A stretch of 64,000 bases of DNA, taken from positions 30,544-94,543 of the forward strand of contig JBDRDJ010000007.1 in the NCBI GenBank assembly GCA_043820815.1. Direction: 5' to 3'. A program made the position numbers and the translations under genes. Shown here in pieces: positions 3,298 through 60,007 of this stretch. The notes below the pieces were generated by a model. That model searched no databases and was not told the origin of the DNA. It saw only the letters and a list, made by a program, of their open reading frames with translations. Source of the DNA: Candidatus Omnitrophota bacterium (GTDB lineage: Bacteria; Omnitrophota; Gorgyraeia; Duberdicusellales; 4484-171). The first letter of the stretch is position 1, and the number at the start of each line of letters is the position of its first letter.

Positions 3298-4734
3298 TTA
3301 TAGGCCGAACCAGCCTTCAACAGGGCTTTTCTTATGCCCTATTCCAATGTGCTTAGGCTGAACATATTCAAAAAAGCCAAATCTGCCCAAGTTCCTCCCC
3401 CATCCTGATTGCTGCATTCCCCCAAAGGGAATCTGAGGTGTCATCTGGACAAAAGTATTAATCCATACTGTTCCGCAATGAGCCTTCTTTGCAAGAGAAT
3501 CAGCTCTTTTGAGATTAGAGGTCCATATCTGTGCCACCAAACCTGTTGGATTGTCCTCTAAGACTTTCTCAATCTCATCTTCGTCTCTAAACCTTCTGAT
3601 AAGAATAACCGGAGCAAAAAACTCTTCGTAGACCATTTCATTTATCGCTATTACAGTAGGGGGATAAAAATAACCCTTCTTTTTAAGAATCTTACCCCCT
3701 GTTAATACTTTGCCTCCCATTTTTGTTATATTTTTTACTTTCTTGTCTATGTTTAGAAGGTGTTCTTTTGTAACCAGAGATCCCATGCCAATACTGGGAT
3801 CAAATGGATCGCCCACTTTAATCATTTCGGCCTTCTGTATCAGCTCTTTAACAAAAACTTCGTATATATCTTCCTGAATGAGGGCAGCGCTCGTTCCTAT
3901 GCAGATCTGGCCTTGCTTCATAAAAGCCGATGCCAAGATGTTTTCAAGGGCGCTTTTTATGTCGGCATCTGAAAATATTGCGGTTATATTGCACCCTCCG
4001 AGTTCACAGATTATTTTTTTAGGGCTTTGGGCTGTTTGCGAAAAAATTTTCTTTAATGTATCTCTTGAACCGGTAAAAGAAATTAAATCCGCTTCGCTCT
4101 CAGCGAGCCATTTACCGACAGTAGGCCCAGGCCCGGTAACAATATTTATTAATCCCTTGGGGATATCTAATTTATCTAAATGTTTTACTAATTCAAGTAA
4201 TGAAAGAGAGCCGTATTCAGATGGTTTTACAATTAGTGAGTTACCTGCGGCAAGCGCGGCAGCGCAACAAAAGCCGAAAATCATCAACGGCACATTATAA
4301 GGAAGGTACACCGCACACACTCCATACGGATCATAGCTTATACTGCTCACACCGCCTTCGACCTGGATGATTTCGTTTTCAAGTATTTCAAGAAAAGAAG
4401 CATAATAATCAAAGCACTGCGCTGCCAGGGGAATATCTACAAACAAAGACTCCTTTAAAGGTTTTCCTATTTCCTTAGACTCTATTTCTGCAAGAGCAGA
4501 GAGATTATCAAGAATAATACGGGATATTTCTCTTAGGATTTTAGCCCGCTCTTTATACGGTTGAGCTCTCCATTGTTTTTGGGCACCCTTGGCGTATTTA
4601 ACAGCATCATCCAAATCTAATTGTGTTGCTTCAAAAATATGCGCAAAGGATTCTTCGGTTGCAGAATTTACCACTTCAATGGTTTGTTTGCTCTTTCTAA
4701 ATTCGCCGCCTATGTAATATTTGTATTCTTGCAT
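3298..4734 (-). CDS. NAD(P)-dependent aldehyde dehydrogenase
   Basis: 478 aa. Contains ELGG and a QICIGTSA catalytic-Cys region, plus an FTGS Rossmann region and a PFGG C-terminal motif. Confidence 0.85.
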   Translation of the reverse strand: MQEYKYYIGGEFRKSKQTIEVVNSATEESFAHIFEATQLDLDDAVKYAKGAQKQWRAQPYKERAKILREISRIILDNLSALAEIESKEIGKPLKESLFVDIPLAAQCFDYYASFLEILENEIIQVEGGVSSISYDPYGVCAVYLPYNVPLMIFGFCCAAALAAGNSLIVKPSEYGSLSLLELVKHLDKLDIPKGLINIVTGPGPTVGKWLAESEADLISFTGSRDTLKKIFSQTAQSPKKIICELGGCNITAIFSDADIKSALENILASAFMKQGQICIGTSAALIQEDIYEVFVKELIQKAEMIKVGDPFDPSIGMGSLVTKEHLLNIDKKVKNITKMGGKVLTGGKILKKKGYFYPPTVIAINEMVYEEFFAPVILIRRFRDEDEIEKVLEDNPTGLVAQIWTSNLKRADSLAKKAHCGTVWINTFVQMTPQIPFGGMQQSGWGRNLGRFGFFEYVQPKHIGIGHKKSPVEGWFGL

Positions 4735-4776: not shown

Positions 4777-5778
4777 TTATTCGACGGGGGCTTGCTCCCA
4801 AAGTTTAAAGGTTCTCACCATTACCGAATACCATTTGCTCATTTTGGAAAAGTCCCCTTTTGCCTTAACCTTACCCTGAGTAAGGGCAACAAACGGATTT
4901 ATCTCTCGATTAAAAACTTTCTTTAAAATATCAATTTGCCCGATAATCACAAACTCTGCCATATCACTGTTATCGGCTTTTACTATCCTGCCTTTTTCAT
5001 AGCAAAAGCGCATAGCGCTCTCGCTATCCTGGTCCTTAACAGCCAATGTGCAAGTTAAATCATGTTTTGCGCCCAAGTCCTGGGCCTCCTTATCATCATT
5101 TATCAGTTCAACCAATCTATCAACATGCTCTTTAGAAAAAACCTTATATTTCATAACATTATTCTCCCTTACTTTATTAACACTATTTTCAGTACTGGGC
5201 TTTAAGTCTTTTGCCTGTTGTCTGTTCAGAAGTAAATTTACCTTTGCCTGTTCCTCTAACAGCTCAATTAAACTAAAAGCTTCTTTAAAATCCTTTCCCA
5301 TGGATACAACGCCATGATTCTTTAAAACGACTATATTGCTTCTCTCTAAAGCTGATATAACCGGTTTCATTTCTGTAACAGCGGGTGTTTCTTGAGGAAT
5401 TGCTTGAATATCGCCTAAATAAAATTTAGCCTCAAATGAAAATATTTCTAATCTATCAAAATAATGGAAAAAAGCGGTTGTATGTGTTGGGTGGGCGTGC
5501 AAAACTACTTTTGTATCTTTAAACTTACTCTGTATGTTTAAATGCATGCTTTTCTCGGCCGTAATACCCGGCTGGCCTTCTAAAATATTGCCTTCTGTGT
5601 CAGTAAGAATAATATCGCTATCCTCTAAGTAGCCAAGATAAGAATCGTGAGCAGTAAGTAAAATATTGCCATTATCCAGCTTGTAAGATACGTTTCCGTT
5701 CTTGGCCGTTGCCAGCCCACGCTGGCTTAAGGCTTTTGACCAATAAATTAGCTCTTTTTTCTCTTTTTCAAAACTCAT
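4777..5778 (-). CDS. Class II aldolase/adducin-family domain (MtnB/FucA/Ald2-like) fused to a C-terminal SCP2-like domain
   Basis: The N-terminal ~200 aa carry GNVSYKL, AEKSMH, VLHAHPTH and LKNHGVVSMG motifs. The C-terminal ~110 aa (..FVALTQGKVKAKGDFSKMSKW..) look like an SCP2 sterol-carrier fold. The start at 5778 (MSFEKEKK) follows an AAGGAG. Confidence 0.7.
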   Translation of the reverse strand: MSFEKEKKELIYWSKALSQRGLATAKNGNVSYKLDNGNILLTAHDSYLGYLEDSDIILTDTEGNILEGQPGITAEKSMHLNIQSKFKDTKVVLHAHPTHTTAFFHYFDRLEIFSFEAKFYLGDIQAIPQETPAVTEMKPVISALERSNIVVLKNHGVVSMGKDFKEAFSLIELLEEQAKVNLLLNRQQAKDLKPSTENSVNKVRENNVMKYKVFSKEHVDRLVELINDDKEAQDLGAKHDLTCTLAVKDQDSESAMRFCYEKGRIVKADNSDMAEFVIIGQIDILKKVFNREINPFVALTQGKVKAKGDFSKMSKWYSVMVRTFKLWEQAPVE

Positions 5779-10414: not shown

Positions 10415-10484
10415 CTCGCACCTCCAGTTACATTAGTTTATAAACATATTATTTTACGAAAACCGAACACCGAGAACCGAAAAC

Positions 10485-11246
10485 CTATTTGTCAGGATGG
10501 CTCTGCGCAAAAGGGATTACCGGCTTCTTCCATGGTGTTTTCTGATTTATAACCGCTATCTCCAGCGGGTTAACATTGTCGCTCTGAGTTAAGGCAAAAA
10601 TTACCGTATCAGCGACGCTTTCAGGCTCCATCAGCCTGCTTTGGTCCTCTGATACTTCCTTTAGCTTGCCGGTCAAAGGTGTTCTGGTTACCCCGGGAAA
10701 TATTGATGTTACCTTTATGCCAAAATCCCTCATCTCCCAAAAGAGCCCCTTGGCAAAAGCCCTAAGCGCCACTTTTAGCGACGTATAAACTATAAAGTTA
10801 CGCGGGGGAGGGTCAACCATTACCGAACCGCTTGTAATGTTAATTATATGGCCTGCTCCGTTATCCTTCATGGAATTTACAACCAAACGAGAAAGCATAA
10901 CATAGCTGTAATAATTGGTAAACATAATCTTCTCGATATCTTCCGGCGGCTGCTGCCAGAAAGGGTGCTGGCTGGATATGCCTGCTCCGTTTATAAGGAC
11001 ATCTATTTTTTTAAACTTCTTCAAAGATACCTCAACAAGATTTTCCAAATCAGCCTGTTTTGTAACATCGCATTTAACACAGAATACATCCTGGCTGTTG
11101 GCAAGGCCTTTCTTTAATTCTTCGAGGGCTTCAATCCTGCGGGCGGCAAGAATGAGTTTTACCCTTTCAAGCGAAAGTTTTTTTACAATAGCCTTTCCAA
11201 TGCCGCCGCTTGCCCCGGTTATGATGCAGACTTTACCTTCTATCAT
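10485..11246 (-). CDS. Short-chain dehydrogenase/reductase (candidate ketoreductase)
   Basis: TGASGGIGKA Rossmann motif, NGAG, and a YTSLK Tyr-x3-Lys catalytic motif. The ATG at 11246 overlaps the MFS stop (ATGA). Confidence 0.85.
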   Translation of the reverse strand: MIEGKVCIITGASGGIGKAIVKKLSLERVKLILAARRIEALEELKKGLANSQDVFCVKCDVTKQADLENLVEVSLKKFKKIDVLINGAGISSQHPFWQQPPEDIEKIMFTNYYSYVMLSRLVVNSMKDNGAGHIINITSGSVMVDPPPRNFIVYTSLKVALRAFAKGLFWEMRDFGIKVTSIFPGVTRTPLTGKLKEVSEDQSRLMEPESVADTVIFALTQSDNVNPLEIAVINQKTPWKKPVIPFAQSHPDK

Positions 11247-12379
11247 GATAATGCACTCCTTTCTGATTTTAGTAATCTTGGTAAACAAAATCCTAAAGAT
11301 AATAACCCCAAGAAAACAGATAAAAATAAAATTTTAAACCCCTGCGCCGCGATAATCCCTCCGCAAAAAGCCCCCAGGCCTCCGAAACTGAAACGCAGTG
11401 AACTGTTTAAGCTCGATGCGTCGCGCATAAGCCTGTCAGGAAAATGTGCCAGGTGCGAAGAAAGCCCCACATGGGTTAAAGCCCAGCCCGAACCCCATAA
11501 AACTATGAGAAAAAGAATCAGCTTATAGCTTTTAGTAAATAATAAAAGAAGCGAAAAGGCGCACATAAGCATAAACCCTGAGCGTGCGACTTTAACTAAA
11601 CCAACCCTCTGCCCTAAGAAGCCGCCTAAGAATTCACATACGATTGCGCTTAAGGTGGCGGCGGTAAAAACCATGCTTATTGCCATTTGCTCTAAATAAA
11701 AACCCTGGCTTAGGTACACGCCCAGCCTTTGCTGTAAGCTGTGGTATAAAAAGCTTCCTGCGGCAATTATAGCCAAGAAATAAACCGTTTCTTTATCGCG
11801 CAAGGTGCTTAAATAACTGATTTTTAAGCCGCTTTTTCTAAAATCAAAACAATCCATGTGGGTTAGAACAAAAAGAAAAACAAATAAGCTTAAAAAAGCC
11901 GGTATTAAATATACTGTTCTCCAGTTTAGAAACCCGCTTAAGAAAACACTCACAAGTGTAGATATGGAGGCGGTGCCAAAAAGAATGCCTATATGCTTGG
12001 TTTTATCTTTTGCCGGAACAACCTTTGAAATAGTGATCAGGGTAAGGGGGACAAAACTACACCCAAACACTCCCATAAAAAAGCGAAAAACAAAAGCAAA
12101 ATTAATCGAGGACGACAGGCTGAATAAAAACGATGAGACAGAAAAACCGAGAGTTGATAAAAGAAACAGGCTTTTTATCTGAATAATTCTTGTAAGCGGC
12201 GCCCACAAAAGGGCAATTATTCCGTAAGGAAGCATATAGAGCCAGGTAAGCTTGATTGCATAATCCGGCGCCACATCAAAATATTCAGCTACTTGAGGGA
12301 TTAATGCCGCCATAGCGGCTACACCGAAAGATGCCGTAAAAAACAAAAGGCAAAAAATAAAGAAATTACTCCTGCTCAT
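11243..12379 (-). CDS. MFS transporter
   Basis: ~378 aa with about 12 hydrophobic segments. Start set at MSRSNFF. Confidence 0.7.
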   Translation of the reverse strand: MSRSNFFIFCLLFFTASFGVAAMAALIPQVAEYFDVAPDYAIKLTWLYMLPYGIIALLWAPLTRIIQIKSLFLLSTLGFSVSSFLFSLSSSINFAFVFRFFMGVFGCSFVPLTLITISKVVPAKDKTKHIGILFGTASISTLVSVFLSGFLNWRTVYLIPAFLSLFVFLFVLTHMDCFDFRKSGLKISYLSTLRDKETVYFLAIIAAGSFLYHSLQQRLGVYLSQGFYLEQMAISMVFTAATLSAIVCEFLGGFLGQRVGLVKVARSGFMLMCAFSLLLLFTKSYKLILFLIVLWGSGWALTHVGLSSHLAHFPDRLMRDASSLNSSLRFSFGGLGAFCGGIIAAQGFKILFLSVFLGLLSLGFCLPRLLKSERSALS

Positions 12380-27002: not shown

Positions 27003-27043
27003 AGATTTATTCTCTTATTATTCGCATATATTATCTCGTTTTT

Positions 27044-27153
27044 AATGACGAAGCCAGAATGACTAATGAAGAATTAATGACTAAATGTGTAAATGTCGAA
27101 ATCACTTCGGCATTTGTCATTCTTAATTAATTAGTCATTCCTCATTCGTCATT
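27044..27153. repeat. 110-bp palindromic repeat element, copy 1 (MITE/REP-like)
   Basis: Bounded by perfect 9-bp inverted termini AATGACGAA / TTCGTCATT. The arms are rich in AATGAC/GTCATT hexamers and a TTAATTAA core. It is the same length as the copy at 34551-34660, with arms about 85-90% identical. Confidence 0.75.
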
Positions 27154-27159
27154 AGTCAT

Positions 27160-27657
27160 TTATCTATATACCATAAGGTTTTTTAGGGGTTTGCGTTTTC
27201 CGGATTTTGATATTTGTGCAGGTTTACCCAAAGCAATAACCGCCTCGAGCTCTAAGTTTCTAGGTGTTTTTAGCAATTTATAAATTTCCTTTCTCTTATT
27301 TAGTATTTCACCCAGCCAGCAAGCACCTAATCCTTTGGAATGAATAACTAAAAGTATATTTTGAATACACGCCCCTATTGCCAAAAGGTCCTTTTCGCAG
27401 TTATACGAAGTTTCTTTATTAAGGAAGATAAGAATTGTCTTATTACAATCTTTAACGATATGAGAATAATGTGTGTAACCAGCCAAAGAATCCTTTTGTT
27501 CTTCCCCAAGAACCATAAACTGCCATGGCTGATTATTGAGCCCTGAAGGCGCCCATCTTCCCGCTTCTAAAATATCGTTAATATCGGAATCTGAAACGCT
27601 ATCTTTCTTAAATTTCCTAACCGACCTTCGCTCTTTTATTAATTGTAATAAATCCAT
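27160..27657 (-). CDS. Nitroreductase family protein
   Basis: MDLLQLIKERRSVRKF is a typical nitroreductase N-terminus, followed by RWAPSGLNNQPW. The ORF-track extension to 27750 overlaps era and the heptamer repeat, so I reject it. Confidence 0.8.
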   Translation of the reverse strand: MDLLQLIKERRSVRKFKKDSVSDSDINDILEAGRWAPSGLNNQPWQFMVLGEEQKDSLAGYTHYSHIVKDCNKTILIFLNKETSYNCEKDLLAIGACIQNILLVIHSKGLGACWLGEILNKRKEIYKLLKTPRNLELEAVIALGKPAQISKSGKRKPLKNLMVYR

Positions 27658-27672
27658 GGGTTGCCTCTTTTT

Positions 27673-27700
27673 TGCCATTTGCCATTTGCTATTTGCCATT
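27673..27700. repeat. Heptanucleotide tandem repeat TGCCATT x4 (one unit is TGCTATT), intergenic
   Basis: Read directly from the sequence. It lies between the era stop (27699) and the nitroreductase start (27657). The same heptamer, reverse-complemented, recurs inside carA at 42766-42800. Confidence 0.8.
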
Positions 27701-28610
27701 AGGCCCACCAATACCCCAGCTCTTTTAATACCCTTGGGCTCTTTTGCCAATCACTCAAAACTTTAACGCGTATATCGATATAAACTTTTTTATTAACTAT
27801 AGTTTCGATTTCTTTTCTGGATTCGATGCCGACTTGCTTTATGAAATTTCCTTTTTCGCCGATTACTATTTTCTTTTGAGATACTCTGTTTACGTATATA
27901 ACGGCTTCGACAACGGTGACCTTGTCTTTATCTTCTATATTTTCTATCTCAACCGCCAGAGAATGCGGAACTTCCTTTTTTAACTTTAAAAATAATTTCT
28001 CTCTTATAATTTCGGCGGCTCGAAACTTAAGAGGAAAATCGGTAAGCGTTTCTTTATCGTAGAATGGATGCTGGTTAGGTAAATTATCAACAATGGCATT
28101 TTGCAATGAACCCATATTCTGGCCGGTCTTTGCCGAAATAGGAAAGTAATATACTAAAGTATCTTTTATGTTTCTGTTTTTTATAATATTGCTCCAATGG
28201 TTTATATAATCGTTTATGTAAGGAGCGCCTAAATCAATTTTGTTCAGTGCCATTATTATTTTAATCCTCTGCGACGCCAAAAGATCCATTGCTTTTCCTT
28301 CTTCTTTGCCTATTTTTCTCGAAACATCAACGACATAAATAAGCAAATCACACCCTTCTATCGATTTTTTTGCAATTGTGTTAAGATGCCTGGCAAGGTC
28401 ATCTTTAAAAGAATGAATGCCGGGGGTATCGACAAAAACAATTTGGGCGCCGTTAAGATTTAGTATTCCCTTTATCTGATAACGTGTTGTCTGAGGGATT
28501 GCCGATACGATACTTATCTTATTGCCCACCAGATAGTTAAGGATAGAAGACTTTCCCACATTCGGCCTTCCCAGCATACAGACAAACCCCGATTTAAAAT
28601 TTTCTTGCAT
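27699..28610 (-). CDS. era: GTPase Era
   Basis: 303 aa. G1 GRPNVGKSS, G3 DTPG, G4 NKID, plus a C-terminal KH domain. Confidence 0.9.
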   Translation of the reverse strand: MQENFKSGFVCMLGRPNVGKSSILNYLVGNKISIVSAIPQTTRYQIKGILNLNGAQIVFVDTPGIHSFKDDLARHLNTIAKKSIEGCDLLIYVVDVSRKIGKEEGKAMDLLASQRIKIIMALNKIDLGAPYINDYINHWSNIIKNRNIKDTLVYYFPISAKTGQNMGSLQNAIVDNLPNQHPFYDKETLTDFPLKFRAAEIIREKLFLKLKKEVPHSLAVEIENIEDKDKVTVVEAVIYVNRVSQKKIVIGEKGNFIKQVGIESRKEIETIVNKKVYIDIRVKVLSDWQKSPRVLKELGYWWA

Positions 28611-29790: not shown

Positions 29791-30180
29791 TTATTTTGTC
29801 CATTCTGCTTGAATGCTTTTGTTTAATTTATCTATAAAAACGTTAAACTTTGGATGCTTTCTCACGTTTTCTAAGTCTTTGTCTTTGAGCATGTAAACAA
29901 TATCGTCATAACCTAAAAGCACGGCTTTCTTGAGCTGGGCTAAGGCTTCATCGGTTTTCCCCAGTAAAGAAAGGCTGCAGGCAAGGTTATAATAAACAAT
30001 GGGGCAATCGGGTTTTAACCGGGTGAGCTTTTTATCAACCTCGAGGCCTTCATCGTAAAAACCCTTGCGCGTATAAGTGTCGCCCAAGGAAATCAACACC
30101 TGAATGAAATCAGGCCGCTCTTTAAGAATACTTTCGTAAAATTTTATCTCGAAATCTTTTTTCTTTTCTCTTTTCTTCAT
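29791..30180 (-). CDS. TPR-repeat protein
   Basis: 129 aa with TPR-like helices (GDTYTRKGFYDEGLEV, YYNLACSLSLLGKTDEALAQLKKAV). Confidence 0.65.
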   Translation of the reverse strand: MKKREKKKDFEIKFYESILKERPDFIQVLISLGDTYTRKGFYDEGLEVDKKLTRLKPDCPIVYYNLACSLSLLGKTDEALAQLKKAVLLGYDDIVYMLKDKDLENVRKHPKFNVFIDKLNKSIQAEWTK

Positions 30181-34510: not shown

Positions 34511-34550
34511 ATTTACCCCCTTGATTTATATTAGTTAAGTTACGGATTTT

Positions 34551-34660
34551 AATGACGAAACCAGAATGTCGAGTGACGAATTAATGATTAAACGGGAAAA
34601 GAAGAATTTATTTCGACATTGGGTCATTCTTAATTAATTCGTCATTACTCATTCGTCATT
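34551..34660. repeat. 110-bp palindromic repeat element, copy 2
   Basis: Same termini (AATGACGAA / TTCGTCATT), same 110-bp length and same orientation as 27044-27153. The central ~25 bp have diverged. Confidence 0.75.
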
Positions 34661-34732
34661 AGACATTATAACACATATTCTATTGTAAATAATAAGGCAG
34701 GTATTGTAAAGGAAATTTCGTAAAGGCCAAGT

Positions 34733-39224: not shown

Positions 39225-42200
39225 TTAATCTTTAGTGTATTCTTGAATCGACCTTACCGTCATGCCGCTTTCTTTAACCGCCTCCATTCCGTTTACTGCT
39301 GCCTGAGCTCCTTGTACTGTTGTAATGCATGGCACACCGTACATAGTAGCCATGCTTCGTATTGCCTTCATGTCCGACTGGCCCTTTTTACCCGATGGTG
39401 TATTAATAATTAGGTGAAGGTTTGAGGCTTTAAGGTATTCTAAAATATTTTTTCCTTTTTCTCCGATTTTAACAACCAGTTCGGAAGATATATTGTTTGA
39501 GGCAAGGGCTTTATTCGTGCCTCTGGTTGCAATTAATTTAAACCCCATATCGTAAAGTTTTTTTGCGATAAACACAATGTTCCTCTTATCGTCGTTTTTA
39601 ACGCTTATAAAAATATTACCTTCTTTAGGCAAACTTTGGCCTGCGGCAACTTGCGATTTAAAAAAAGCCTCTCCAAAATTGCGGCCAATGCCCATAACCT
39701 CGCCGGTTGATTTCATCTCAGGGCCTAAGATAATATCGACTCCCGAAAACCTTGAGAAAGGTAAAACTGATTCTTTTACTGCAACATGCTTAGGCATAGA
39801 CTCTTTTAATAACCCTGCCTCGGAAAGCGTTTTGCCTGCCATAACTTTTGCCGCTATCTTTGCTAAAGGAACACCCGTTGTTTTACTCACAAAGGGAACT
39901 GTGCGCGAGGCGCGGGGATTTACTTCAAGCACATATACCACATCTTTCTTAACGGCGAACTGGATATTAATAAGGCCTTTGACTTCTAATTCTTTTGAAA
40001 GCACTAATGTCTTTTTGCGTATGGCGTCAATAATCTCGTCGCTTAATGTATGGGGGGGAAGAACGCAAGCCGAATCTCCCGAATGCACTCCTGCTTCCTC
40101 AACGTGCTCCATAATGCCTGCGATAATTGTATCTTTTCCGTCGGAAATTGCATCAACGTCAACCTCAACCGCATCTTCCAAAAATTTATCAATAAGCACG
40201 GGGTGCTCGCTCGATACCTCCTGCGCGGCATCCATAAATTCATCCAAAGAATTATCATCGTAAACTATTCTCATTGCCCTTCCGCCTAAAACATAAGACG
40301 GCCTGACCAAAACCGGATATCCGATTCTTTTTGCGATTTTCTTTGCTTCTTTGCGTGAATTAGCCGACCCGTTCGGCGGCTGATCAATTTTCAGCTTCTT
40401 TATAAGGCGTGCAAACTTCTCTCTGTCTTCTGCCCGGTCAATTGAATCAACTGAAGTCCCGATAATCGGGACACCTGAATTTTTAAGCCTTTTTGCTAAA
40501 TTAAGCGGGGTCTGGCCTCCGAATTGGACTATTACGCCGTTTGGCTTTTCTTTATCGACGATGTTCATCACATCTTCAAAAGTAAGCGGCTCAAAATACA
40601 GCTTATCAGAAGTATCGTAATCGGTCGATACTGTTTCCGGATTTGAATTAACCATAATGGTCTCAAAACCTATTTCCTTTAAAGCAAAGGAAGCATGGCA
40701 GCAGCAGTAATCAAATTCAATACCCTGGCCTATTCTGTTAGGGCCGCCGCCTAAAATCATGATTTTCTTTTTATCCGATACCCGCGACTCATCTTCGGTT
40801 TCATAGGTCGAATAATAATAAGGCGTGTAAGCTTCAAACTCTGCCGCGCAGGTATCAACAAGTTTATAAGTTGCCTCCATTCCCTTTTCTTTTCTTAATC
40901 TTCTTATCTCCTCTTCATCTTTACCGGTTAAATCAGCAATTTGCTTATCGCTGAATCCGTATTGTTTAGCGCGCAGCAGCGATTCGTCTGACATCTGATC
41001 TTTCGATATTTGATTTTCGAGTTCAACAATTTGTAAAATATTATCCAGAAACCAGGAGTCTATGCCGGTAAGATTATATATTTTTTCGATTGAATAACCT
41101 TTCTGAAAAGCATATTTAATGTAGAATATCCTTGAAGCATTTGGCTCTCTTAACCTGAGTTCTATTTTTTCATCAGAAATCTCTTTATAATCCAATTTAT
41201 TATCTAAACCATTGTGGCCGATTTCAAGGCCGCGCAAACCCTTTTGCAAGGCTTCTTTAAACGTGCGGCCTATGGCCATGGTTTCACCCACTGATTTCAT
41301 AGAAATTCCCAGAATGTCTTTTGCTTCAGGAAATTTCTCAAAGGTAAAGCGCGGTATTTTTACCACACAATAATCTATGGCCGGTTCAAAAGATGCCGGT
41401 GTCTCTTTAGTGATATCGTTTTGTATCTCGTCGAGCGTATAACCTACCGCGAGTTTTGCGGCAAATTTAGCGATGGGAAAACCGGTTGCTTTTGAGGCAA
41501 GAGCGGAAGAACGGGAAACACGCGGGTTCATCTCAATAACAACCATTCTTCCTGTTTTAGGGTCCACGGCAAACTGTATATTAGAGCCTCCGGTTTCAAC
41601 CCCTATTTCGCGTATAATAGCGGTGGCGGCATCGCGCATTTTCTGATACTCAATATCAGTCAGTGTCTGGGCAGGGGCAACTGTAATCGAATCTCCGGTA
41701 TGAATCCCCATGGGATCAAGATTTTCAATGGAACAGACAATAACCACGTTATCTTTTTTGTCCCGCATCACTTCAAGCTCGTATTCTTTCCATCCGATAA
41801 CCGATTCCTCAACGAGAATCTCGGAAATCATGCTGTTTTTTAAACCTAAATCGGCTACTTTCTCAAACTCTTCTTCTGTGGCAACAATCCCTCCGCCGGT
41901 TCCTCCGAGCGTGAAACTTGAACGGACAATTAAAGGTAAACCTATTTCTTTCATGGCGCAGCGCGCCTCATCCATATTATATGCAAGGGCGCTTTTAGGC
42001 AAATCAAGGCCTATTTTCTGCATTGCTTTCTTAAAGTCTTTCCTGTCTTCTGCTTTTTTTATAGTCTGGTAATTTGCGCCTAACATGCGCACGCCGTGTT
42101 TATCCAATATTCCCATCTCATGAGCCTTCATTGCCGTATTTAAGCCGGTCTGGCCGCCCAGAGTGGGCAGAATTGCATCCGGCTTTTCTTTCTCTATGAT

Positions 42201-42428
42201 TTTATCCAAAACTTCCGGAGTTATAGGCTCGATGTATGTGCTGTCTGCGATTTCAGGGTCAGTCATAATCGTTGCGGGATTGGAATTTACAAGAATTACC
42301 CTGTAGCCTTCCTCTTTTAAGGCTTTGCAGGCCTGGGTGCCGGAATAATCAAATTCGCAGGCCTGGCTAATAACAATTGGGCCGGAGCCGATTATTAATA
42401 TACTTTTTATGTCTGTTCTTTTAGGCAT
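39225..42428 (-). CDS. carB: Carbamoyl-phosphate synthase large subunit (copy 1, coupled to carA)
   Basis: 1067 aa with duplicated ATP-grasp halves and a C-terminal MGS-like domain. The start overlaps the carA stop. Confidence 0.95.
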
Positions 42429-43533
42429 TTTTTTTCATAAGGTTAATAAATTCGCCAAAAAGATAGCGGGCGTCGTGGGGCCCTGGTGCTGATTCCGGGT
42501 GAAACTGCACGGAGAATATTGGTAATTTTTTATGCCGGATTCCTTCTAATGTCTGGTCGTTTAGATTTACATGAGTAATTTCAAAGTCATCTTTGGGCAA
42601 AGAATCCATATCTACGCAAAACCCATGATTCTGAGAAGTGATTGAAACCTTATTTGTATTCAAATCCTTAACAGGGTGATTTGCTCCGTGGTGGCCGAAT
42701 TTAAGCTTGTAAGTCTTTCCGCCTAAAGCAAGGCCGAGTATCTGGTGGCCAAGGCATATACCCATAATGGCAAATGGCAAATGGCTAATGGCTAATGGTT
42801 TAATTAATTCCTTAACGGTTTCAATTGCACAGGTTACAGCGGCGGGGTCGCCGGGGCCATTTGATAAAAGAATTCCATCAGGATTCAGCCCTAATATTTC
42901 TTTAGCGCTTGTTTTTACAGGAACTACGGTTACATGACAGTTAAGACGTGAGAGTTCTCTTAAAATGTTTAGTTTAACCCCGCAATCAAGCACTACAACT
43001 TTATGATCACCTTTATCATTATAATTGTATGGTTTATCTATAGTAACTTCTTTAACCAAATCCACGCCCAGAAGGCCTTTAGAGTTACGGACTTGCTCAA
43101 TTAAAGCTTTATCATCAACATCGTCTGTTGAGATTGCTGCTTTCATAGCCCCCTGCAAGCGAATTCGTCTTGTAAGGGCCCGGGTATCAATGCCTTCAAT
43201 TCCTACTATATTATTCTCTTTAAGGTATTCTCCCAACCCCTTCTTAGAACGCCAGTTACTGGCGATGCGGCTTGCTTCTTTTACAACAAACCCTTCTAAG
43301 AAAAGCTTTCTCGATTCAACGTCTTCGGGGTTTACTCCGTAGTTTCCGATTAAAGGGTAGGTCATAGTTACAATCTGGCCTTTATAGGAAGGGTCAGTTA
43401 GAATCTCCTGATAACCGGCCATGCTGGTATTAAATATTACTTCGCCGAAGCTTATCCCTTCTGCGCCAAAGCTTAAACCTTTAAACACAGCTCCATCCTC
43501 AAGAACTAATTTTGCTCGTTTAATTTTATCCAT
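42421..43533 (-). CDS. carA: Carbamoyl-phosphate synthase small (glutaminase) subunit
   Basis: 370 aa. GICLGHQ catalytic Cys, [11 protein letters not shown], and FHPE. Confidence 0.93.
42766..42800. repeat. Heptanucleotide tandem repeat AATGGC(A/T) x5 inside carA, translated in frame
   Basis: AATGGCA AATGGCA AATGGCT AATGGCT AATGGTT. On the coding strand this encodes [12 protein letters not shown], ending 10 nt upstream of the catalytic Cys codon (42754-42756). Confidence 0.85.
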
Positions 43534-43658: not shown

Positions 43659-45194
43659 TTACGCTATAAATAAGCTTTTACTGGAGAAATTGGGCTCGCT
43701 TGTAAGGTTAACTCCCAGCCTGCGCAGGCCCGCTTCATCACCCGGTGTGGGAATATGGGTTGTATGAACCTCGCAGCCTTTAAGCTCGCTTAAGCTTTGC
43801 ATGGCAAGCTGGGCCGAAGGATTAGCCTGTGCGCTTATGCTAAGAGCTATTAGGGTTTCCTCCAGGTCAAGGCTGACTGTCTTATAACAAAGAATATCTT
43901 TTTTTAAAGCCCCGATTGAATCAATAACACTGGGCGAGAGAACATGTATTTTATCGGGAATGCCGGATAGCTTCTTAATCGCATTAAGGACCAAACTTGC
44001 GGTTGCGTGCACAAAAGGAGAGTTTTTTCCTGTAACGATTGAACCGTCGGCAAGTTCAATGGCTGCCCCGCAGAAAATACCTTCATGGCCTTTGCCTTTC
44101 TTTTGCGCCTCATCAGCCGCTAAACGCGCCGGCTCAACAACCGGCCTGTTGCCGGGTTTCATGCCTAACTCTTCCATAATAAGCTCGGCACGCTGAACAG
44201 TTTCTTTATTTACAAAGCCCATTGCGTACTCACACATATAGCGGAAATACCTGCGGATAACTTCCTGCTTTGCCGCTTCTTTTACTATCTCGTGAGAAAT
44301 TATGCCGAATCCCGCCCTGTTTACACCCATATCAGTTGGGGATTTGTAATGAGAATCTGAACCAGTAATTTTCTCAAGTATCCTTTTAACTACCGGGAAT
44401 ATTTCTACATCCCGGTTGTAATTTACTGTGCTTTCTTGGTATGCCTCAAGATGAAAAGAATCGATCATATTAAAATCCCTTATATCGGCCGTGGCTGACT
44501 CATAGGCCACATTAACCGGATGCTTAAGCGGTATATTCCATATAGGAAATGTTTCAAATTTTGCATATCCGGCTTCTGTTCCCTTTTTATATTCATGATA
44601 AAGCTGGCTAAGACAAGTGGCTAACTTTCCGCTGCCCGGGCCGGGGCCGGTTACGATTACAAGGGGATTTTTTGTTTCAATATAATTATTGGCTCCGTAG
44701 CCTTGGTCGCTTACGATAAGGTCAACGTCAGTTGGGTAGCCCTTTGTGAAACAATGAGTATAAACTTTTATTTTACGGCGTTCGAGTTTATTTTTAAATA
44801 TAGCGGCTGAGGGCTGGCCTTCAAAACGGGTAATCACAACCGCTGTTACTTCTATGCCAAACTCCCTTAAGTCATCGATAAGCTTAAGAGAATCAACGTC
44901 ATAAGTAATCCCAAAATCAGCGCGTACTTTTCTGCGCTCGATATCGCCGGCGTAAATACACAGAATGATATCCGCTTTATCTTTTAAGGTTTGAAGCAGC
45001 CTCATCTTAACATTAGGGTCAAAGCCGGGAAGAACTCTGGAAGCATGATAATCAAAAAGAAGTTTGCCTCCAAACTCAAGATAAAGCTTGTTGTTAAACT
45101 TCTTTACTCTTTCCAGGATTGCCTGGGTTTGCTCTTTTAAATACTTTTCGTTATCAAAACCTATCTTCTTATCTATGCAAGACCCTTGCCCCAT
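43659..45194 (-). CDS. DUF1846 (UPF0371) family protein
   Basis: 511 aa. The N-terminus [18 protein letters not shown]....[24 protein letters not shown] is as I recall for UPF0371. The start lies 23 nt after the second carB stop. Confidence 0.65.
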
Positions 45195-45217: not shown

Positions 45218-48200
45218 TTAATGCCGCTTACTTGTGCGTAACCTATCCTTATAATAATCCTGCAAAGATGTAGGCGTGATTTTGCTTTTTTTAACTTCTT
45301 CTATTCCCTCAACGCTGGCCTGTGCCGCGGCAATAGAAGTAATATAAGGAACTTTTTGCTGTATTGCCATCATTCTTATGTAGCTGTCATCATATTTGCT
45401 GCTTGAACCCACAGGGGTATTGATTACAAGATGAATCTCTTTGTTTTTTATTGCATCAACGATGTTCGGCCTGCCTTCATGAAGCTTTTTTATGTATTCG
45501 CAAGGTATTCCGTGCTGCGAAAGAAAATCACATGTGCCTTCTGTTGCATAAATTTTAAATCCGAGTTTTTTAATCCTTTGAGCTATGGCCAAAACGTGCT
45601 TTTTGTCTTTATCGGTAACAGTCAAAAGCACGTTGCCTTCCAAGGGAAGCTTTAACCCGGCTGCCTCCTGGGCTTTATAGAAAGCTAACCCAAAAGTTTC
45701 CGCCATGCCCATAACTTCTCCTGTTGCCCTCATCTCAGGGCCAAGTAAAGGGTCAACCTCAGGAAACATGTTAAAAGGGAAAACCGCTTCTTTTACTCCT
45801 ACATACGGGAGCTCGCCGGCAACAAGCTCAGGGAAATCTTTAATTTTTTTGCCCAGCATAAGTTTCGTTGCAACGCGCGCAATAGGAATACCTGTCACTT
45901 TTGAAACAAGAGGAACCGTTCTTGATGCTCTGGGATTGGCTTCAAGTATGTAAACCTTATTGTCGCAGATTGCATACTGGATGTTTATCAGGCCAACCAC
46001 TTTTAATTCTTTTGCGATGCGCTTGGTATAATCAATTATTGTGTCTAAATGCTCTTTTTTTATTGTGTGTGTGGGTATCGCGCATGCCGAATCTCCTGAG
46101 TGCACTCCCGCAAGCTCGATATGCTCCATTACACCGGCAACAAAAACATCCGCGCCGTCACAAAGGGCATCGACTTCAGCCTCAACCGCCTGCTCTAAAA
46201 ACCTGTCAATAAGCATGGGGTATTCGGGGCTTACCTGGATAGCCTCTTTAGCGTACTTTTGAAGCGCCTTTTCGTCATAGACTATCTCCATGCCGCGCCC
46301 CCCGAGAACAAAAGACGGCCTGACTATAAGAGGGTATCCTATTTTGTTTGCTATTTTTACTGCCTCTTCCAAAGAGCGGGCTGTTGAACTTTCCGGTTGG
46401 AGAATATCGATATCTATCATTCTCTTTCTGAAATACTCCCGGTCTTCGGCTAACCGTATGCTTTCGGGAGAAGTGCCTAATATTTTTACACCGTTGTCTT
46501 TTAATTCCTGGGCGATATTTAAAGGGGTCTGGCCGCCGAATTGAACAATTACTCCTTGCGGTTTTTCCTTCTCGTAAATTGAAAGGACATCTTCAACGGT
46601 CAGGGGTTCAAAATACAGTTTATTTGAAGTGTCGTAGTCGGTTGATACTGTTTCGGGGTTACAGTTTACCATAATCGACTCATACCCTTCGTCGCGAAGG
46701 GCAAAGGCCGCATGGACACAGGTGTAATCAAACTCTATACCCTGGCCTATTCTGTTGGGGCCGCCGCCTAAAATCATGATTTTTTTGTTTTTAGAAACCT
46801 CCACCTTATCTTTACCTATATAGGTAGAATAATAATAAGAGGCATTCTCAACGCCGCTTACGGGAACTATATCGTAACAATTTATTTTTTTGAGTTTCTT
46901 CCTTTTTTCCCGAACTTGTGGCTCTTCTGTTTTAAAAACCTCTGCCAGATACTTATCGGAAAATCCCCACTCTTTAGCTTTAATCAATTTTTCCGTTGGC
47001 AATTTATCCCACGGATATTTAATAATCTCCTCTTCAAAATCAACCAATTCCTTCATCTCGCTGATAAACCATCTGCCGATGTAAGTCACTTTATAGAGCT
47101 CATCAACTGCCGCCCCTCTTCTTAAAGCCTCATACATTAAGAAAATCCTTTCGCTTGATGGGTAAGATAGCCGGCTTTTAAGCTCAAAATCGGTTAAAGC
47201 CTTAAATTTAGGAACGCCTAAACCATATCTTTTTATCTCAAGAGACCGTATGGATTTTTGAAAAGCCTCTTTAAAAGTTTTTCCAATGCTCATTACTTCA
47301 CCCACCGCCCTCATCTGAGTCCCGAGCATATCTTTTGCTTTGGGAAATTTCTCAAAAGCCCAGCGGGCAAACTTAATAACAACGTAATCACCCCACGGTT
47401 CATATTTCTCCAGAGTTCCTTTTCTCCAGTAAGGCATTTCATCCATGGTTAATCCGGCGGCGAGTTTTGTTGAAATTCGCGCAATTGGAAACCCCGTTGC
47501 TTTTGAGGCAAGGGCAGATGAACGCGATGTTCTGGGGTTAATCTCGATCACAACCATTCTGTCATCTTCTGGATTGTGCGCAAACTGGATATTTGTGCCC
47601 CCTGTTACGCCTATTGCTTCAACAATCTTATAAGAAAGTTTCTGCATTTTTTCCTGTAATTTCTTAGGAACCGTAAGCATCGGCGCACAGCAGAAACTAT
47701 CCCCGGTATGAACCCCCATTGCATCTATATTTTCGATAAAGCAAACGGTAATTTTCTGGTTTTTAGCGTCGCGCACAACCTCAAGTTCAAGCTCCTCCCA
47801 GCCGATAACCGCTTCTTCCACAAGAACCTGATTAACAATACTCGCGGCAAGGCCTCTTGTCGCAATTATTCTCAATTCTTCGACATTATAAGCAATGCCC
47901 CCGCCGGTTCCCCCCAAAGTATAAGCGGGCCTTAAAACAACGGGATACTTAATCCTCTCGGCTATAGCTTCAGCCTCCTCAACCGAATGGCTGATTTCAG
48001 AACGGGCAATAGGAATATCGAGCTTTTTCATTGCTTCTTTAAAAACAAGGCGGTCTTCTCCCCGCTCAATAGCATCGGCTTTTACTCCAATAACCTCAAC
48101 GCCGTACTTATCAAGCACTCCTGATTTATAAAGGCTTGAGGCAAGATTGAGCCCGGTTTGGCCTCCTAAATTAGGAAGAAGGGCATCGGGGCGCTCTTTT

Positions 48201-48436
48201 TCAATTATTTTCTCAACGCTCTCGGGAGTCAGCGGCTCAATATAAGTTTTATCGGCCGTTGAGGGATCGGTCATAATGGTTGCGGGGTTAGAATTAACAA
48301 GTACTATTTCATACCCTTCTTCCCTAAGAGCCTTACAGGCCTGCGTGCCTGAGTAATCAAACTCACAAGCCTGGCCAATTATGATTGGCCCTGAACCGAT
48401 AATCAAAATTTTGTGAATATCTTCTCTTCTTGGCAT
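45218..48436 (-). CDS. carB: Carbamoyl-phosphate synthase large subunit paralog (copy 2, no adjacent carA)
   Basis: ~1072 aa, full-length (both ATP-grasp halves plus an MGS-like domain). Roughly 60% identical to copy 1 by eye. Start chosen at [17 protein letters not shown] after a GGGAGG. Confidence 0.9.
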   Translation of the reverse strand: MPRREDIHKILIIGSGPIIIGQACEFDYSGTQACKALREEGYEIVLVNSNPATIMTDPSTADKTYIEPLTPESVEKIIEKERPDALLPNLGGQTGLNLASSLYKSGVLDKYGVEVIGVKADAIERGEDRLVFKEAMKKLDIPIARSEISHSVEEAEAIAERIKYPVVLRPAYTLGGTGGGIAYNVEELRIIATRGLAASIVNQVLVEEAVIGWEELELEVVRDAKNQKITVCFIENIDAMGVHTGDSFCCAPMLTVPKKLQEKMQKLSYKIVEAIGVTGGTNIQFAHNPEDDRMVVIEINPRTSRSSALASKATGFPIARISTKLAAGLTMDEMPYWRKGTLEKYEPWGDYVVIKFARWAFEKFPKAKDMLGTQMRAVGEVMSIGKTFKEAFQKSIRSLEIKRYGLGVPKFKALTDFELKSRLSYPSSERIFLMYEALRRGAAVDELYKVTYIGRWFISEMKELVDFEEEIIKYPWDKLPTEKLIKAKEWGFSDKYLAEVFKTEEPQVREKRKKLKKINCYDIVPVSGVENASYYYSTYIGKDKVEVSKNKKIMILGGGPNRIGQGIEFDYTCVHAAFALRDEGYESIMVNCNPETVSTDYDTSNKLYFEPLTVEDVLSIYEKEKPQGVIVQFGGQTPLNIAQELKDNGVKILGTSPESIRLAEDREYFRKRMIDIDILQPESSTARSLEEAVKIANKIGYPLIVRPSFVLGGRGMEIVYDEKALQKYAKEAIQVSPEYPMLIDRFLEQAVEAEVDALCDGADVFVAGVMEHIELAGVHSGDSACAIPTHTIKKEHLDTIIDYTKRIAKELKVVGLINIQYAICDNKVYILEANPRASRTVPLVSKVTGIPIARVATKLMLGKKIKDFPELVAGELPYVGVKEAVFPFNMFPEVDPLLGPEMRATGEVMGMAETFGLAFYKAQEAAGLKLPLEGNVLLTVTDKDKKHVLAIAQRIKKLGFKIYATEGTCDFLSQHGIPCEYIKKLHEGRPNIVDAIKNKEIHLVINTPVGSSSKYDDSYIRMMAIQQKVPYITSIAAAQASVEGIEEVKKSKITPTSLQDYYKDRLRTSKRH

Positions 48437-48506
48437 AAAACCTCCCTGAGCACGCGGCTTATGGAGCAAATGAAATGAGCGGACATAAGTCATGCCCTCA
48501 AACAAA

Positions 48507-54226: not shown

Positions 54227-54314
54227 AACCGCCCCCATTAAAAAATCAAAAATCAAGTATCAAAATCTAATCTTTACCTACAAGCCTATGTAATGCATAC
54301 AAGGCTATAAATGT

Positions 54315-55006: not shown

Positions 55007-55059
55007 AGTAATTTTATTTTACTCGGCAGGGGTTGGTATGACAAGCTATTTCTTTTTAG

Positions 55060-55099
55060 CACGAATTTCCACAAATTATAGACGAATTACCACGAATAA
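55060..55099. repeat. 40-bp exact repeat, copy A (contains a TATAAT box on the minus strand)
   Basis: CACGAATTTCCACAAATTATAGACGAATTACCACGAATAA is identical to 59951-59990. Confidence 0.9.
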
Positions 55100-55274
55100 A
55101 AGTTGACCCGAATGATTATTTTATCGGAAGTCATATGGCAACATAGCATTGTTTAGTCGTGGTCTTGAAAAATTTGGCGGGAATTTTTTAAGAGAAGAAA
55201 TCGGTTTTTACATAGAAGAATTAAACTTTTGTGCTTTTATGAATGTTGTATAATGTTTCTTATTTTCCTTAACC

Positions 55275-58496: not shown

Positions 58497-59948
58497 CTAC
58501 AAAAACGGCAGGCTGCTTTCTTCCATAAGGTAGGTGTCGATATGATAAGCGGCGCGGCGGCCTTCGGCAATTGCCCAAACAACAAGGGATTGGCCGCGCC
58601 GGCAGTCTCCGGCGCTGAATATGCCTTTTTTTGATGTCATGTAGCCCTGATTGGTTTTTATATTTCCTCTCTCATCCAGCTCTAAACCCAAATCAGAAAT
58701 TAATCCTGATTTTTCCGGGCCGAGAAATCCTACTGCAAGAATTACTAAATCTGCTTCTATCTCAAACTCTGAGCCAGGAATTTCTTTCATAACGGGGCAG
58801 GTTTTATTTTTTGCCGGATAAACAAATTCTACTTTAACACAAGAAAGCTTTTTAACACAGCCTTGCTCGCCTATAAACTTTTTTGTAAGGACTGCCCAAC
58901 GGCGCAAGACTCCTTCCTGGTGGCTGCTGGTTGTTTTAAGGAGCAAAGGATATAACGGCCAGGGTTGATGGCTGGCCCTGCATTCAGGAGGCTGCGATAA
59001 GACTTCGATTTGAACAACACAAGATGCCCCCTGCCGGTTAGCGGTCCCCACACAGTCGCTTCCCGTATCCCCTCCTCCTATTACGACAACTTTTTTTCCT
59101 TTAGCCTCGATTACCTCTTCGCCGCAAATATCTTCGCCGCTAACCTTACGGTTGTTCTGGGTTAGATAGTCCATGGCAAAGTGAATGCCTTTTAAATCCC
59201 GGCCTTCAATTTTTAAATCTCTTGGCGTGCGGGAGCCGCTGGCAATTACAATTGCATCGAATTCTTTTTCCAAATCTTGATATTTAATATTTTCTCCTAC
59301 GCCGGCTTGGCACTTAAATTCAACGCCTTCTTGCTGTAATAAGCTGATGCGCCTTTCGATAATTTCTTTTTCGAGTTTAAAGTCAGGTATTCCATAGCGC
59401 AAAATACCCCCTGGCTTTTTATCTTTTTCAAAAACAACCACCCTGTGGCCGGCTTTATTGAGCTGGCCTGCCGCAGAAAGCCCTGCCGGGCCGGAGCCGG
59501 CAACCGCGACTTTCTTTCCTGTTCTTACGCTCGGCGCAAGGGGCTTAATCAGACCCCTGCTAAAAGCATATTCAATGGCTGATAATTCGTTTTCTCTTAT
59601 GGTAACAGGGTCGTCGTTTATCCCTAAAACACAGCCATATTCGCAAAGCCCGGGGCAAACTCTACCGGTTATCTCGGGCAGATTATTTGTTGCCTCAAGC
59701 AAAGAAAGCGCTTTTTTCCATTGGCCATTCATCACCGAATCATTCCACTCAGGAATATAGTTTCCAACCGGGCAGGCCCAGTGGCAGAAAGGGACTCCGC
59801 AATCCATACAGCGCGAAGCCTGTTGTTTTGAATCTCCCTCTTGCCTTGGCAGGCAGACATCTCTATAATCTGCCGCGCGTTCGCACACAGGGCGATACTC
59901 TTCGCTTTTGCGCTTAATTTTCAGGAATGCTTTTATGTCTTTATTCAT
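58497..59948 (-). CDS. gltD: Glutamate synthase (NADPH) small subunit
   Basis: ~483 aa. [10 protein letters not shown] Fe-S region, [11 protein letters not shown] and [13 protein letters not shown] dinucleotide folds. ATG chosen at 59948 (MNKDIKAF); the track's GTG at 59963 falls inside the 40-bp repeat. Confidence 0.9.
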
Positions 59949-59950
59949 AA

Positions 59951-59990
59951 CACGAATTTCCACAAATTATAGACGAATTACCACGAATAA
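59951..59990. repeat. 40-bp exact repeat, copy B (between the gltB stop and the gltD start)
   Basis: Identical to 55060-55099. Confidence 0.9.
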
Positions 59991-60007
59991 TATTTTTATA
60001 ACATGTA

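Follow-up and report, generated by a model that had tools for sequence, protein, structure and literature searches.

A translated heptanucleotide array ahead of the catalytic cysteine of CarA in a Candidatus Omnitrophota genome, probably a fixed copy of the genome's own repeat family

The window analyzed here comprises 64,000 nt of contig JBDRDJ010000007.1 of Candidatus Omnitrophota, and all coordinates are counted from its start. Within this window, the gene of the carbamoyl-phosphate synthase small subunit, carA, contains a tandem array of five heptanucleotide units that is translated in frame in the glutaminase domain, immediately ahead of the codon for the catalytic cysteine, and that makes the protein longer than its closest relatives. 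We consider it probable (about 0.62) that this array is a fixed, tolerated, and frame-preserving copy of the genome's own GCCATTW / AATGGCW heptamer family, which is of the type known as STRR repeats. In the following, we describe the array, the protein that contains it, its relatives inside and outside of the window, and the explanations that compete for its origin.

Five tandem heptamers precede the catalytic cysteine codon

The features of the carA locus on which the analysis rests are these:

42765..42799, minus strand: heptanucleotide tandem array of five units (Tandem Repeats Finder, direct reading, pattern search)
42763..42801, minus strand: codons K245 to M257, the peptide written by the array, including the net +7 aa in comparison with canonical ...LIGKLPIF (translation, loop lengths, AlphaFold2 model)
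42754..42756, minus strand: Cys260 codon TGC, the catalytic nucleophile in GIC260LGHQ (sequence, invariant column, alignment to E. coli Cys269)
42421..43533, minus strand: carA, glutamine-hydrolyzing carbamoyl-phosphate synthase small subunit, 370 aa, intact (open reading frame (ORF), Pfam, alignment, model)
39225..42428, minus strand: carB, large subunit, 1067 aa, directly downstream in the same operon (ORF, Pfam CPSase_L_D1/D2/D3 plus MGS)

Read directly on the plus strand, positions 42765-42799 consist of the units TAATGGC, AAATGGC, AAATGGC, TAATGGC, and TAATGGT. On the coding strand, the units are ACCATTA, GCCATTA, GCCATTT, GCCATTT, and GCCATTA, with one mismatch in unit 1. Tandem Repeats Finder reported 42766-42798 with a period of 7, 4.7 copies, 96% matches, and the consensus AATGGCA. 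Three positions vary among the five units, and the longest perfect runs extend over about 2.9 units.

The carA repeat is real and goes beyond chance. A search for GCCATTWGCCATTW with at most one mismatch gave 7 matches in the window, where 0.26 were expected, and none of 100 shuffled sequences reached this number. Arrays with at least three copies and at most one mismatch occurred three times in the window at period 7, and not once in 30 Markov shuffles; at periods of 8 to 15, the window contained none. An earlier note on this DNA had placed a heptamer array in frame in the glutaminase domain of carA, which direct reading, Tandem Repeats Finder, the pattern search, and the translation all confirmed. 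Its count of five tandem heptamers near the cysteine codon also holds, but the distance to this codon, given as 10 nt, has to be corrected: on the coding strand, 8 nt lie between the last repeat base and the Cys260 codon.

In frame, the array is read as AAA CCA TTA GCC ATT AGC CAT TTG CCA TTT GCC ATT ATG, followed by GGT ATA TGC (G-I-C260), and the insert is located three residues ahead of the catalytic cysteine. One of the frames of the array re-creates Leu-Pro (TTG CCA), as in the native sequence. The seventh base of unit 3 is restricted to T, because GCCATTA at this position would be read as CAT TAG, which is a stop. At both edges, the array runs seamlessly into native codons (AAA CC... and ...ATT ATG GGT). 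We found neither an inverted partner within 400 nt of the array, nor a hairpin or RNA structure at the array (local RNA fold z = +0.32), nor foreign flanks or a target-site duplication next to it, and no Rfam family was detected in the whole window.

The gene encodes an apparently intact CarA

Judged by its sequence, the gene is a bona fide CarA gene: its reading frame is uninterrupted, and both the catalytic triad and the carB overlap are intact. The encoded protein is 100% identical to P0001, a protein from an NCBI Candidatus Omnitrophota metagenome-assembled genome (MAG) that is annotated as carbamoyl-phosphate synthase small subunit and that has the Pfam domains PF00988 (CPSase_sm_chain) and PF00117 (GATase). 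It aligns from end to end with E. coli CarA 1BXR_B (E = 2e-108), with C260 aligned to Cys269. In an alignment of 55 sequences, itself among them, it retains each of the 110 invariant columns, including C260, H345, and E347. The Cys-His-Glu triad is present in the motifs GICLGHQ and HPE, and the carA stop and the carB start overlap by 8 nt.

The insertion site is the segment that joins two secondary structure elements, namely the helix after the GPGDP motif and the beta-strand running into the nucleophile elbow. An AlphaFold2 model of the window CarA reached a mean predicted local distance difference test (pLDDT) value of 84.6, with about 90 over residues 241-260, and a predicted template modeling (pTM) score of 0.87; the template modeling (TM) score against E. 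coli CarA 1CS0_B was 0.90. In this model, helix 234-249 is extended through K245-I249 and is followed by the 5-residue loop SHLPF (250-254), the strand 255-259 (AIMGI), Cys260, and helix 261-269. According to the model, the extra residues would thus lengthen the helix and add a short loop at the surface, with the triad kept in place.

A second full-length carB paralogue (45218..48505, minus strand; 1095 aa, all CPSase_L domains) is encoded two genes upstream of carA, from which it is separated by a DUF1846 gene (43659..45194). Segments of it are 71-75% identical to carB in nucleotide sequence, and the sister lineage L207 likewise has a second carB near carA.

The extra residues are specific to the lineage

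We compared the loop, defined as the residues between GPGDP and G-I-C-L-G-H/Q-Q, with the best 120 matches among 5.8 billion proteins and with the carA loci of 80 GTDB species genomes. The loop has 27 aa in the window protein. Of the 120 homologues, 117 have a loop of 20 aa, while a single one has 21 aa and another single one has 27 aa; at 74 of the 80 genome loci, the loop has 20 aa. The excess over the closest relatives is exactly 7 aa, or 21 nt, or three units, and the deletion of three units gives the canonical length, matching ELIGKLPIFGIC. The excess of about 7 aa (21 bp, three units) claimed in the earlier note was thereby reproduced with the relatives as reference; compared with E. coli CarA, which had served as its reference, the window loop is indeed longer, but by 6 aa.

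The closest sequences, which are 72-74% identical at the amino acid level, do not have the extra residues. These are P0027, the locus L001, and the neighbor-joining sisters P0074 and P0105. As P0074, P0105, and L001, the nearest locus, do not have it, the insertion is lineage-specific, a point that the earlier note had proposed to check. An inspection of the ancestral codons by eye did not discriminate between KPLAIM versus GKLPIF and a seed on the native TTG CCA, for which closer relatives would be needed.

The same loop contains a different heptamer insert in another lineage

Two further CarA proteins, P0019 (locus L081) and that of L009, have +7 aa at the same site (LIYQPSTINYKLPIM and LIYQSSTANYKLPIM, respectively). 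The DNA of the L081 insert consists of TATCAAC, CATCAAC, TATAAAC, and TATAAAC, which is a heptamer unlike that of the window, and the corresponding DNA of L009 reads TATCAAT, CATCAAC, TGCCAAT, and TATAAAC. In comparison to L081, the L009 insert has accumulated substitutions without any change in length or frame. The CarA proteins of L081 and L009 share 79% identity with one another, as compared to about 70-72% with the window CarA, and in the neighbor-joining tree they are positioned far from it, among many sequences without insert. As the heptamers differ and the tree positions are distant, the inserts in the window and in this second Omnitrophota lineage arose independently. The latter insert was found in two independent assemblies, one from ENA (L081) and one from GenBank (L009).

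Inserts of non-repetitive sequence were also detected in this loop, namely in L026 (+6), L035 (+6), P0135 (+7), P0154 (+9), P0240 (+5), and P0145 (+6), and no heptamer periodicity was recognizable in those of P0135, P0154, and P0240. Such inserts indicate that the loop tolerates insertions. The earlier note had regarded loops of equivalent length in distant orthologues, encoded by non-repetitive DNA, as an argument against a repeat expansion. The inserts of L026, L035, P0135, P0154, and P0240 carry this argument weakly, but they are no evidence that the insert of the window is ancestral. P0115, the nearest relative of P0019, has a loop that is longer by one residue (LLSTKIPIF). We did not use it as a contracted remnant of YQPSTIN, as its DNA has no heptamer trace.

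Other changes in length were seen in the CarA proteins of these comparisons. L009 CarA has a 38-aa insertion in the linker (3493-3640) with the heptamers ACCAGAA, ACCAGAA, and GACAGAC, and a further 8-aa insertion in the GATase domain beside the decayed +7 aa insert. In L083 (244-1313) and L084, carA is split into an ORF for a 188-aa N-domain and an ORF for a 168-aa GATase domain, which overlap by 4 nt at the interdomain linker. The same arrangement is seen in two independent JGI contigs. Either the gene is truly divided or a frameshift is present; a heptamer frameshift was rejected, as there is no period-7 array at this position.

Related heptamers recur in the window

Three other features of the window are built from the same or a closely related unit:

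27671..27701, plus strand: intergenic sister array, GCCATTT GCCATTT GCTATTT GCCATTA (Tandem Repeats Finder period 7, 4.3 copies; sequence; pattern matches)
27040..27160, minus strand: hairpin element of about 120 nt, whose arms are inverted AATGACN heptamer arrays (direct repeat families D6 and D7; fold -39 kcal/mol, z = -6.3)
34547..34667, minus strand: second, more diverged hairpin copy (D6 and D7, 83-93% identical to the first copy; fold z = -2.3)

The intergenic occurrence of the same heptamer array, which had been noted before, was confirmed at 27671-27701 by Tandem Repeats Finder, by the sequence itself, and by the pattern matches. Relative to transcription, this array is oriented opposite to the carA copy. 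Its last unit holds the TAA stop of an era-like GTPase gene, and its end is 14 nt ahead of the ribosome-binding site (RBS) and ATG (27657) of a nitroreductase gene, the neighbors being assigned by Pfam. The units of the hairpin arms (AATGACT, AATGACG, and AATGAGG) are one mismatch away from the carA unit AATGGCW, and for this reason we place the hairpin elements in the heptamer family of carA. A search for tandem AATGRCN in the window gave 17 matches, as compared to 1.3 expected, and single heptamer copies outside of arrays were not enriched in the window. In the 64 kb of genome covered, the same or a related unit thus recurs at several loci and in both orientations. Four of the six period-7 arrays of the window are intergenic, and the carA copy is an exception.

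The earlier note had further suggested that a common repeat family invaded a core gene. The shared unit at 27671-27701, the AATGACN hairpins, and the sharing of units within genomes described below agree with a common family. The adjoining TTAATTAA, however, is no sign of an invasion: it is read as GAA TTA ATT AAA and merely represents the conserved E-L-I-K codons, for which relatives have TTA ATT or TTA ATC, and an inverted partner is missing. For the same reason, we rejected TTAATTAATT at carA, which had been taken as the core of a 110-nt element, as evidence of insertion, since it encodes the conserved E-L-I-K and relatives have the same codons.

Some side aspects of the repeats in the window may be added. 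Both hairpin copies have a core that contains TTAATTAATT and lie just downstream of a minus-strand gene. They resemble elements of the miniature inverted-repeat transposable element (MITE) or repetitive extragenic palindrome (REP) kind, built from heptamers, or are possibly terminators. Like the array at 27671-27701, two intergenic arrays with unrelated units are positioned at operon junctions: an SDR gene ends in the TAG stop at which the array at 10457-10485 begins, and that at 54241-54265 is directly upstream of an RBS and ATG near 54224. A period-7 array of TCTTTTC (3.1 copies, 30155-30176) is found at the extreme 5' end of the ORF 29791..30180 on the minus strand; it may encode an N-terminus rich in Lys, Glu, and Arg, unless translation starts farther downstream. 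Finally, a 56-nt repeat is present at 55049-55104 and 59940-59995 in copies that are 89% identical, with ACGAATT(T/A)CCAC-type sub-repeats at periods of about 10 and 21.

Heptamer arrays form genome-specific families

The comparison with other genomes covered 558 kb, made up of the window and the 80 carA loci, and among the loci were those of Methylomirabilota, Nitrospirota, Planctomycetota, and Elusimicrobiota MAGs. In this set, 29 of 49 tandem arrays have a period of 7. In-frame heptamer arrays were present in the interdomain linker of carA in L057 (CAATTCG, 4 copies), L078 (GTTCCAC, 4.3 copies), L066 (ACCAACA, 4.6 copies), L043, L009, and L073, and in carB in L010, L019, L042, and L043. Among 13 lineage-specific carB insertions, the autocorrelation was strongest at a lag of 7 in six.

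Heptamer arrays constitute genome-specific families. A unit was shared, with at most one mismatch in any rotation or on any strand, by 8 of 37 pairs of arrays within a locus, as compared to 13 of 743 pairs between loci, and none of 5000 permutations reached this value. A second set consisted of 120 metagenome contigs that were retrieved with (GCCATTT)3, with the target unit and all pairs less than 500 nt apart excluded. Here, 23 of 131 far pairs shared their unit, as compared to 3.3%, and again no permutation (of 2000) reached the observed value. The metagenome scan with (GCCATTT)3 yielded at least 120 unrelated contigs with GC contents of 0.27-0.69, and the organism of the window was not recovered; the unit is widespread.

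Several arrays of these sets deserve mention in their own right. In L073 (Methylomirabilota MAG, carA linker, 3547-3685), forward and reverse-complement arrays of GAGCCGA (8 copies) and CTCGGCT (4 copies) are translated in frame, and the same is true for the ATAGTCC / GGACTAT-type forward and reverse-complement arrays in carB of L019 (Omnitrophota MAG, 5513-5599). Both inserts are whole hairpin-capable heptamer elements inside coding DNA. In L005 (Omnitrophota MAG, 1935-2085), 21.6 copies of ATAGCTC fill the spacer between carA and carB, which is by far the longest array in the carA loci. L088 (WNGD01006053.1), a metagenome contig with 58% GC, has four inverted AAATGAC / CATTTGT array pairs (295-396, 4365-4474, 5497-5590, and 11450-11579), which show the hairpin design of the window with nearly the same unit in an unrelated organism.

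Origin of the array in carA

As stated above, we favor the view that the carA array is a fixed and tolerated copy of the genome's own heptamer family, and it is probably a harmless passenger that contributes little or nothing functionally. Such an insert could have arisen as follows. A heptamer would have been amplified by slipped-strand or template-switch events, with one frame reproducing the native Leu-Pro codons TTG CCA, and selection on the essential gene would have passed only net three-unit changes that are free of stops. The seven residues gained, which correspond to one AISHLPF period of the 7-aa peptide repeat, would form about 1.5 helical turns and a short surface loop, leaving Cys260-His345-Glu347 unmoved. 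The array would then decay by point mutation, as the insert in the lineage of P0019 and L009 did.

Several points weigh against this view. A stepwise slippage by +1, +1, and +1 units needs two frameshifted null intermediates, and a one-step slippage by +3 units is hard to envisage mechanically if the seed had only two units. With a regularity of still 96%, the array is either young or homogenized, and residual slippage is possible. Three nearly invariant neighbors are altered, the canonical K, P, and F having become P246, A255, and M257. As these positions are changed and the array is not cleanly inserted, some functional cost of the insert is possible. The confidence of AlphaFold2 may be optimistic, as just one further sequence of the alignment has the insert, and the model shows CarA without its contact to CarB. 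Since even the nearest relative is only 72-74% identical at the amino acid level, any view of the ancestral sequence, of how old the insert is, and of how it expanded is tentative.

It is also conceivable, although we consider it clearly less probable, that the array was imported, i.e., copied from the dispersed AATGRCN family, either through the insertion of a mobile element made of a heptamer array or by template switching onto another array, for which the native TTAATTAA possibly provided microhomology. Such an import would be comparable to the in-frame landing of Rickettsia palindromic elements in genes. Exactly this unit also forms an array 15 kb away, and the units of the two hairpin elements, one of which has TTAATTAATT directly beside its heptamer arm, differ from it by one mismatch. 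In addition, the sharing of units within genomes is highly significant in two independent sets, which independent local slippage does not predict, and slippage of native sequence cannot make whole inverted heptamer pairs such as those translated in the carA linker of L073 and in carB of L019. As single heptamers are not over-represented outside of arrays, it appears to be the tandem form itself that was propagated. At carA, however, there is no inverted partner, foreign flank, or target-site duplication that would mark an import, and TTAATTAA is explained by the conserved E-L-I-K codons that relatives have as well. The edges merge seamlessly with native codons, and one frame gives the native Leu-Pro. 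Moreover, neither a transposase nor another agent is known to act on such arrays, for which no mechanism is evident according to PMC4679880. A more general form of this idea, to which we attach somewhat less weight still, is that a genome-specific process, be it mobile heptamer/hairpin elements or a templated addition or copying of repeats, seeds one unit at many loci, including coding DNA, and that selection for the frame then leaves quanta of 7 aa; the carA insert would in that case be an imported AATGRCN copy.

That the tract is instead maintained as a contingency locus, which switches carA on and off by slipped-strand mispairing as the AAGACTC tract does in E. coli neuO, is a possibility that the earlier note had raised but that is improbable. 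The tract is located in a coding region, its unit is not a multiple of three, and a change by one or two units would abolish the glutaminase domain. The tract is 96% regular, and the second carB paralogue at 45218..48505 might buffer a loss of carA. The neuO case shows that a translated heptanucleotide tract can switch, with the ON state confined to copy numbers divisible by 3 (PMC13001214). However, the carA tract comprises five interrupted units with at most about 2.9 perfect ones in a row, whereas neuO tracts have 3-53 and commonly about 20 units (PMC13001214), and carA is a housekeeping gene for a core enzyme of arginine and pyrimidine biosynthesis rather than a surface or host-interaction gene. 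The insert of L081 and L009 kept its length while it gained substitutions, as expected for a fixed fossil and not for a maintained switch, and the other in-frame heptamer arrays in carA and carB are found in variable surface loops of many lineages, as passengers would be. An allele of another length was not found, but the searches were uninformative on this point: the exact CarA protein had no entry in the contig index, a metagenome scan with the carA flanks and a gap of 7-37 nt gave 0 matches, and a query of the protein database for CarA fragments of the same species gave none with at least 80% identity, the best having 72%.

A misassembled repeat number in a gene that really has the canonical loop is very improbable, even though the source is a metagenome-assembled genome. 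With its 35 nt, the array is much shorter than a sequencing read; moreover, its frame is exactly kept, and the stop that a uniform GCCATTA tract would create is avoided. In addition, the same kind of insert is present in the two independent assemblies L081 (ENA) and L009 (GenBank) and comparable in-frame arrays are present in many unrelated assemblies.

Significance

An essential enzyme that tolerates a repeat-encoded insertion of 7 aa three residues from its nucleophile is, taken alone, a curiosity. It is nevertheless a clean and datable example of how heptanucleotide repeats make protein length variation in quanta of 7 aa. The comparative data add that heptamer inserts in surface loops of CarA and CarB recur across several uncultivated phyla and that the same CarA loop was struck twice independently. 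They also add that each genome favors its own heptamer units and that inverted heptamer pairs are in some cases translated in full. If such arrays were spread by a dedicated mechanism, this mechanism would generally give rise to insertions and deletions in core proteins, a source that has been overlooked, and would explain STRR-type repeats; the recurrent inserts in Omnitrophota, Methylomirabilota, Nitrospirota, Planctomycetota, and Elusimicrobiota MAGs would then mark a widespread and undescribed generator of loop insertions. For annotation, it follows that arrays in conserved genes are to be treated as real features and not as assembly errors or pseudogenes.

Comparison with known systems

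Heptanucleotide repeats are the most over-represented class of long simple sequence repeats (SSRs) in bacteria and have been recognized as such since 2007. To our knowledge, their origin is still unexplained, and they have not been described before in this phylum. Heptameric SSRs are over-represented in many bacterial genomes, where they are mostly intergenic, often have about 4 units, and sometimes form inverted pairs (PMC4692102, PMC4679880). Prokaryotic examples of heptanucleotide long SSRs are the cyanobacterial STRR repeats, the GGGAATC-type repeats of Xanthomonas and Nostoc, and TAACTGA in Beggiatoaceae (PMC4692102, PMC4679880, citing Mrazek et al. 2007 and Mazel et al. 1990). The family in the window resembles STRR-type repeats in its tandem units of 7 nt with about 3-6 copies, in the genome specificity of the units, in the occurrence in both orientations, and in the inverted pairs that are sometimes capable of forming stem-loops. 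As in STRR-type systems, single heptamer copies are not enriched. STRR-type repeats are mostly intergenic, near stops or upstream of starts, and the window arrays at 27671-27701, 10457-10485, and 54241-54265 fit this distribution. Unlike these systems, the host is a member of the Omnitrophota, and the unit of the window is neither G-rich nor TAACTGA. Moreover, the copies reported so far inside ORFs belong to hypothetical proteins or to the ends of proteins (PMC4679880, section 15), whereas the carA copy is in a catalytic domain.

The neuO tract (5'-AAGACTC-3')n of the E. coli K1 prophage CUS-3 has 3-53 units, often about 20, and is ON at multiples of three (PMC13001214). It shares with carA that a heptanucleotide repeat is translated and that the full-length protein comes in quanta of three units (7 aa). 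In contrast to the five imperfect units in a housekeeping enzyme, the neuO tract occupies the 5' end of its gene and is long, perfect, polymorphic, and phase-variable, and the neuO product modifies a capsule.

Rickettsia palindromic elements (RPEs) were reportedly described by Ogata et al. in 2000 as selfish repeats that are inserted in frame in protein-coding genes. RPEs are palindromic units of 100-150 nt and not tandem heptamers. In both cases, a dispersed non-coding family has some copies in frame in conserved genes, where a surface peptide is added and the protein is not destroyed. The window family likewise has hairpin elements of about 120 nt, and whole inverted heptamer pairs are translated in L073 and L019; the carA copy, however, is a direct array of 35 nt without a palindrome.

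Finally, the insert can be compared with the loop indels of class I glutamine amidotransferases, in which the connection from helix to strand before the nucleophile elbow likewise varies, with +1 to +9 aa in a minority of CarA proteins. What sets the inserts of the window and of L081/L009 apart is that their DNA still shows its origin from 7-nt tandem units.

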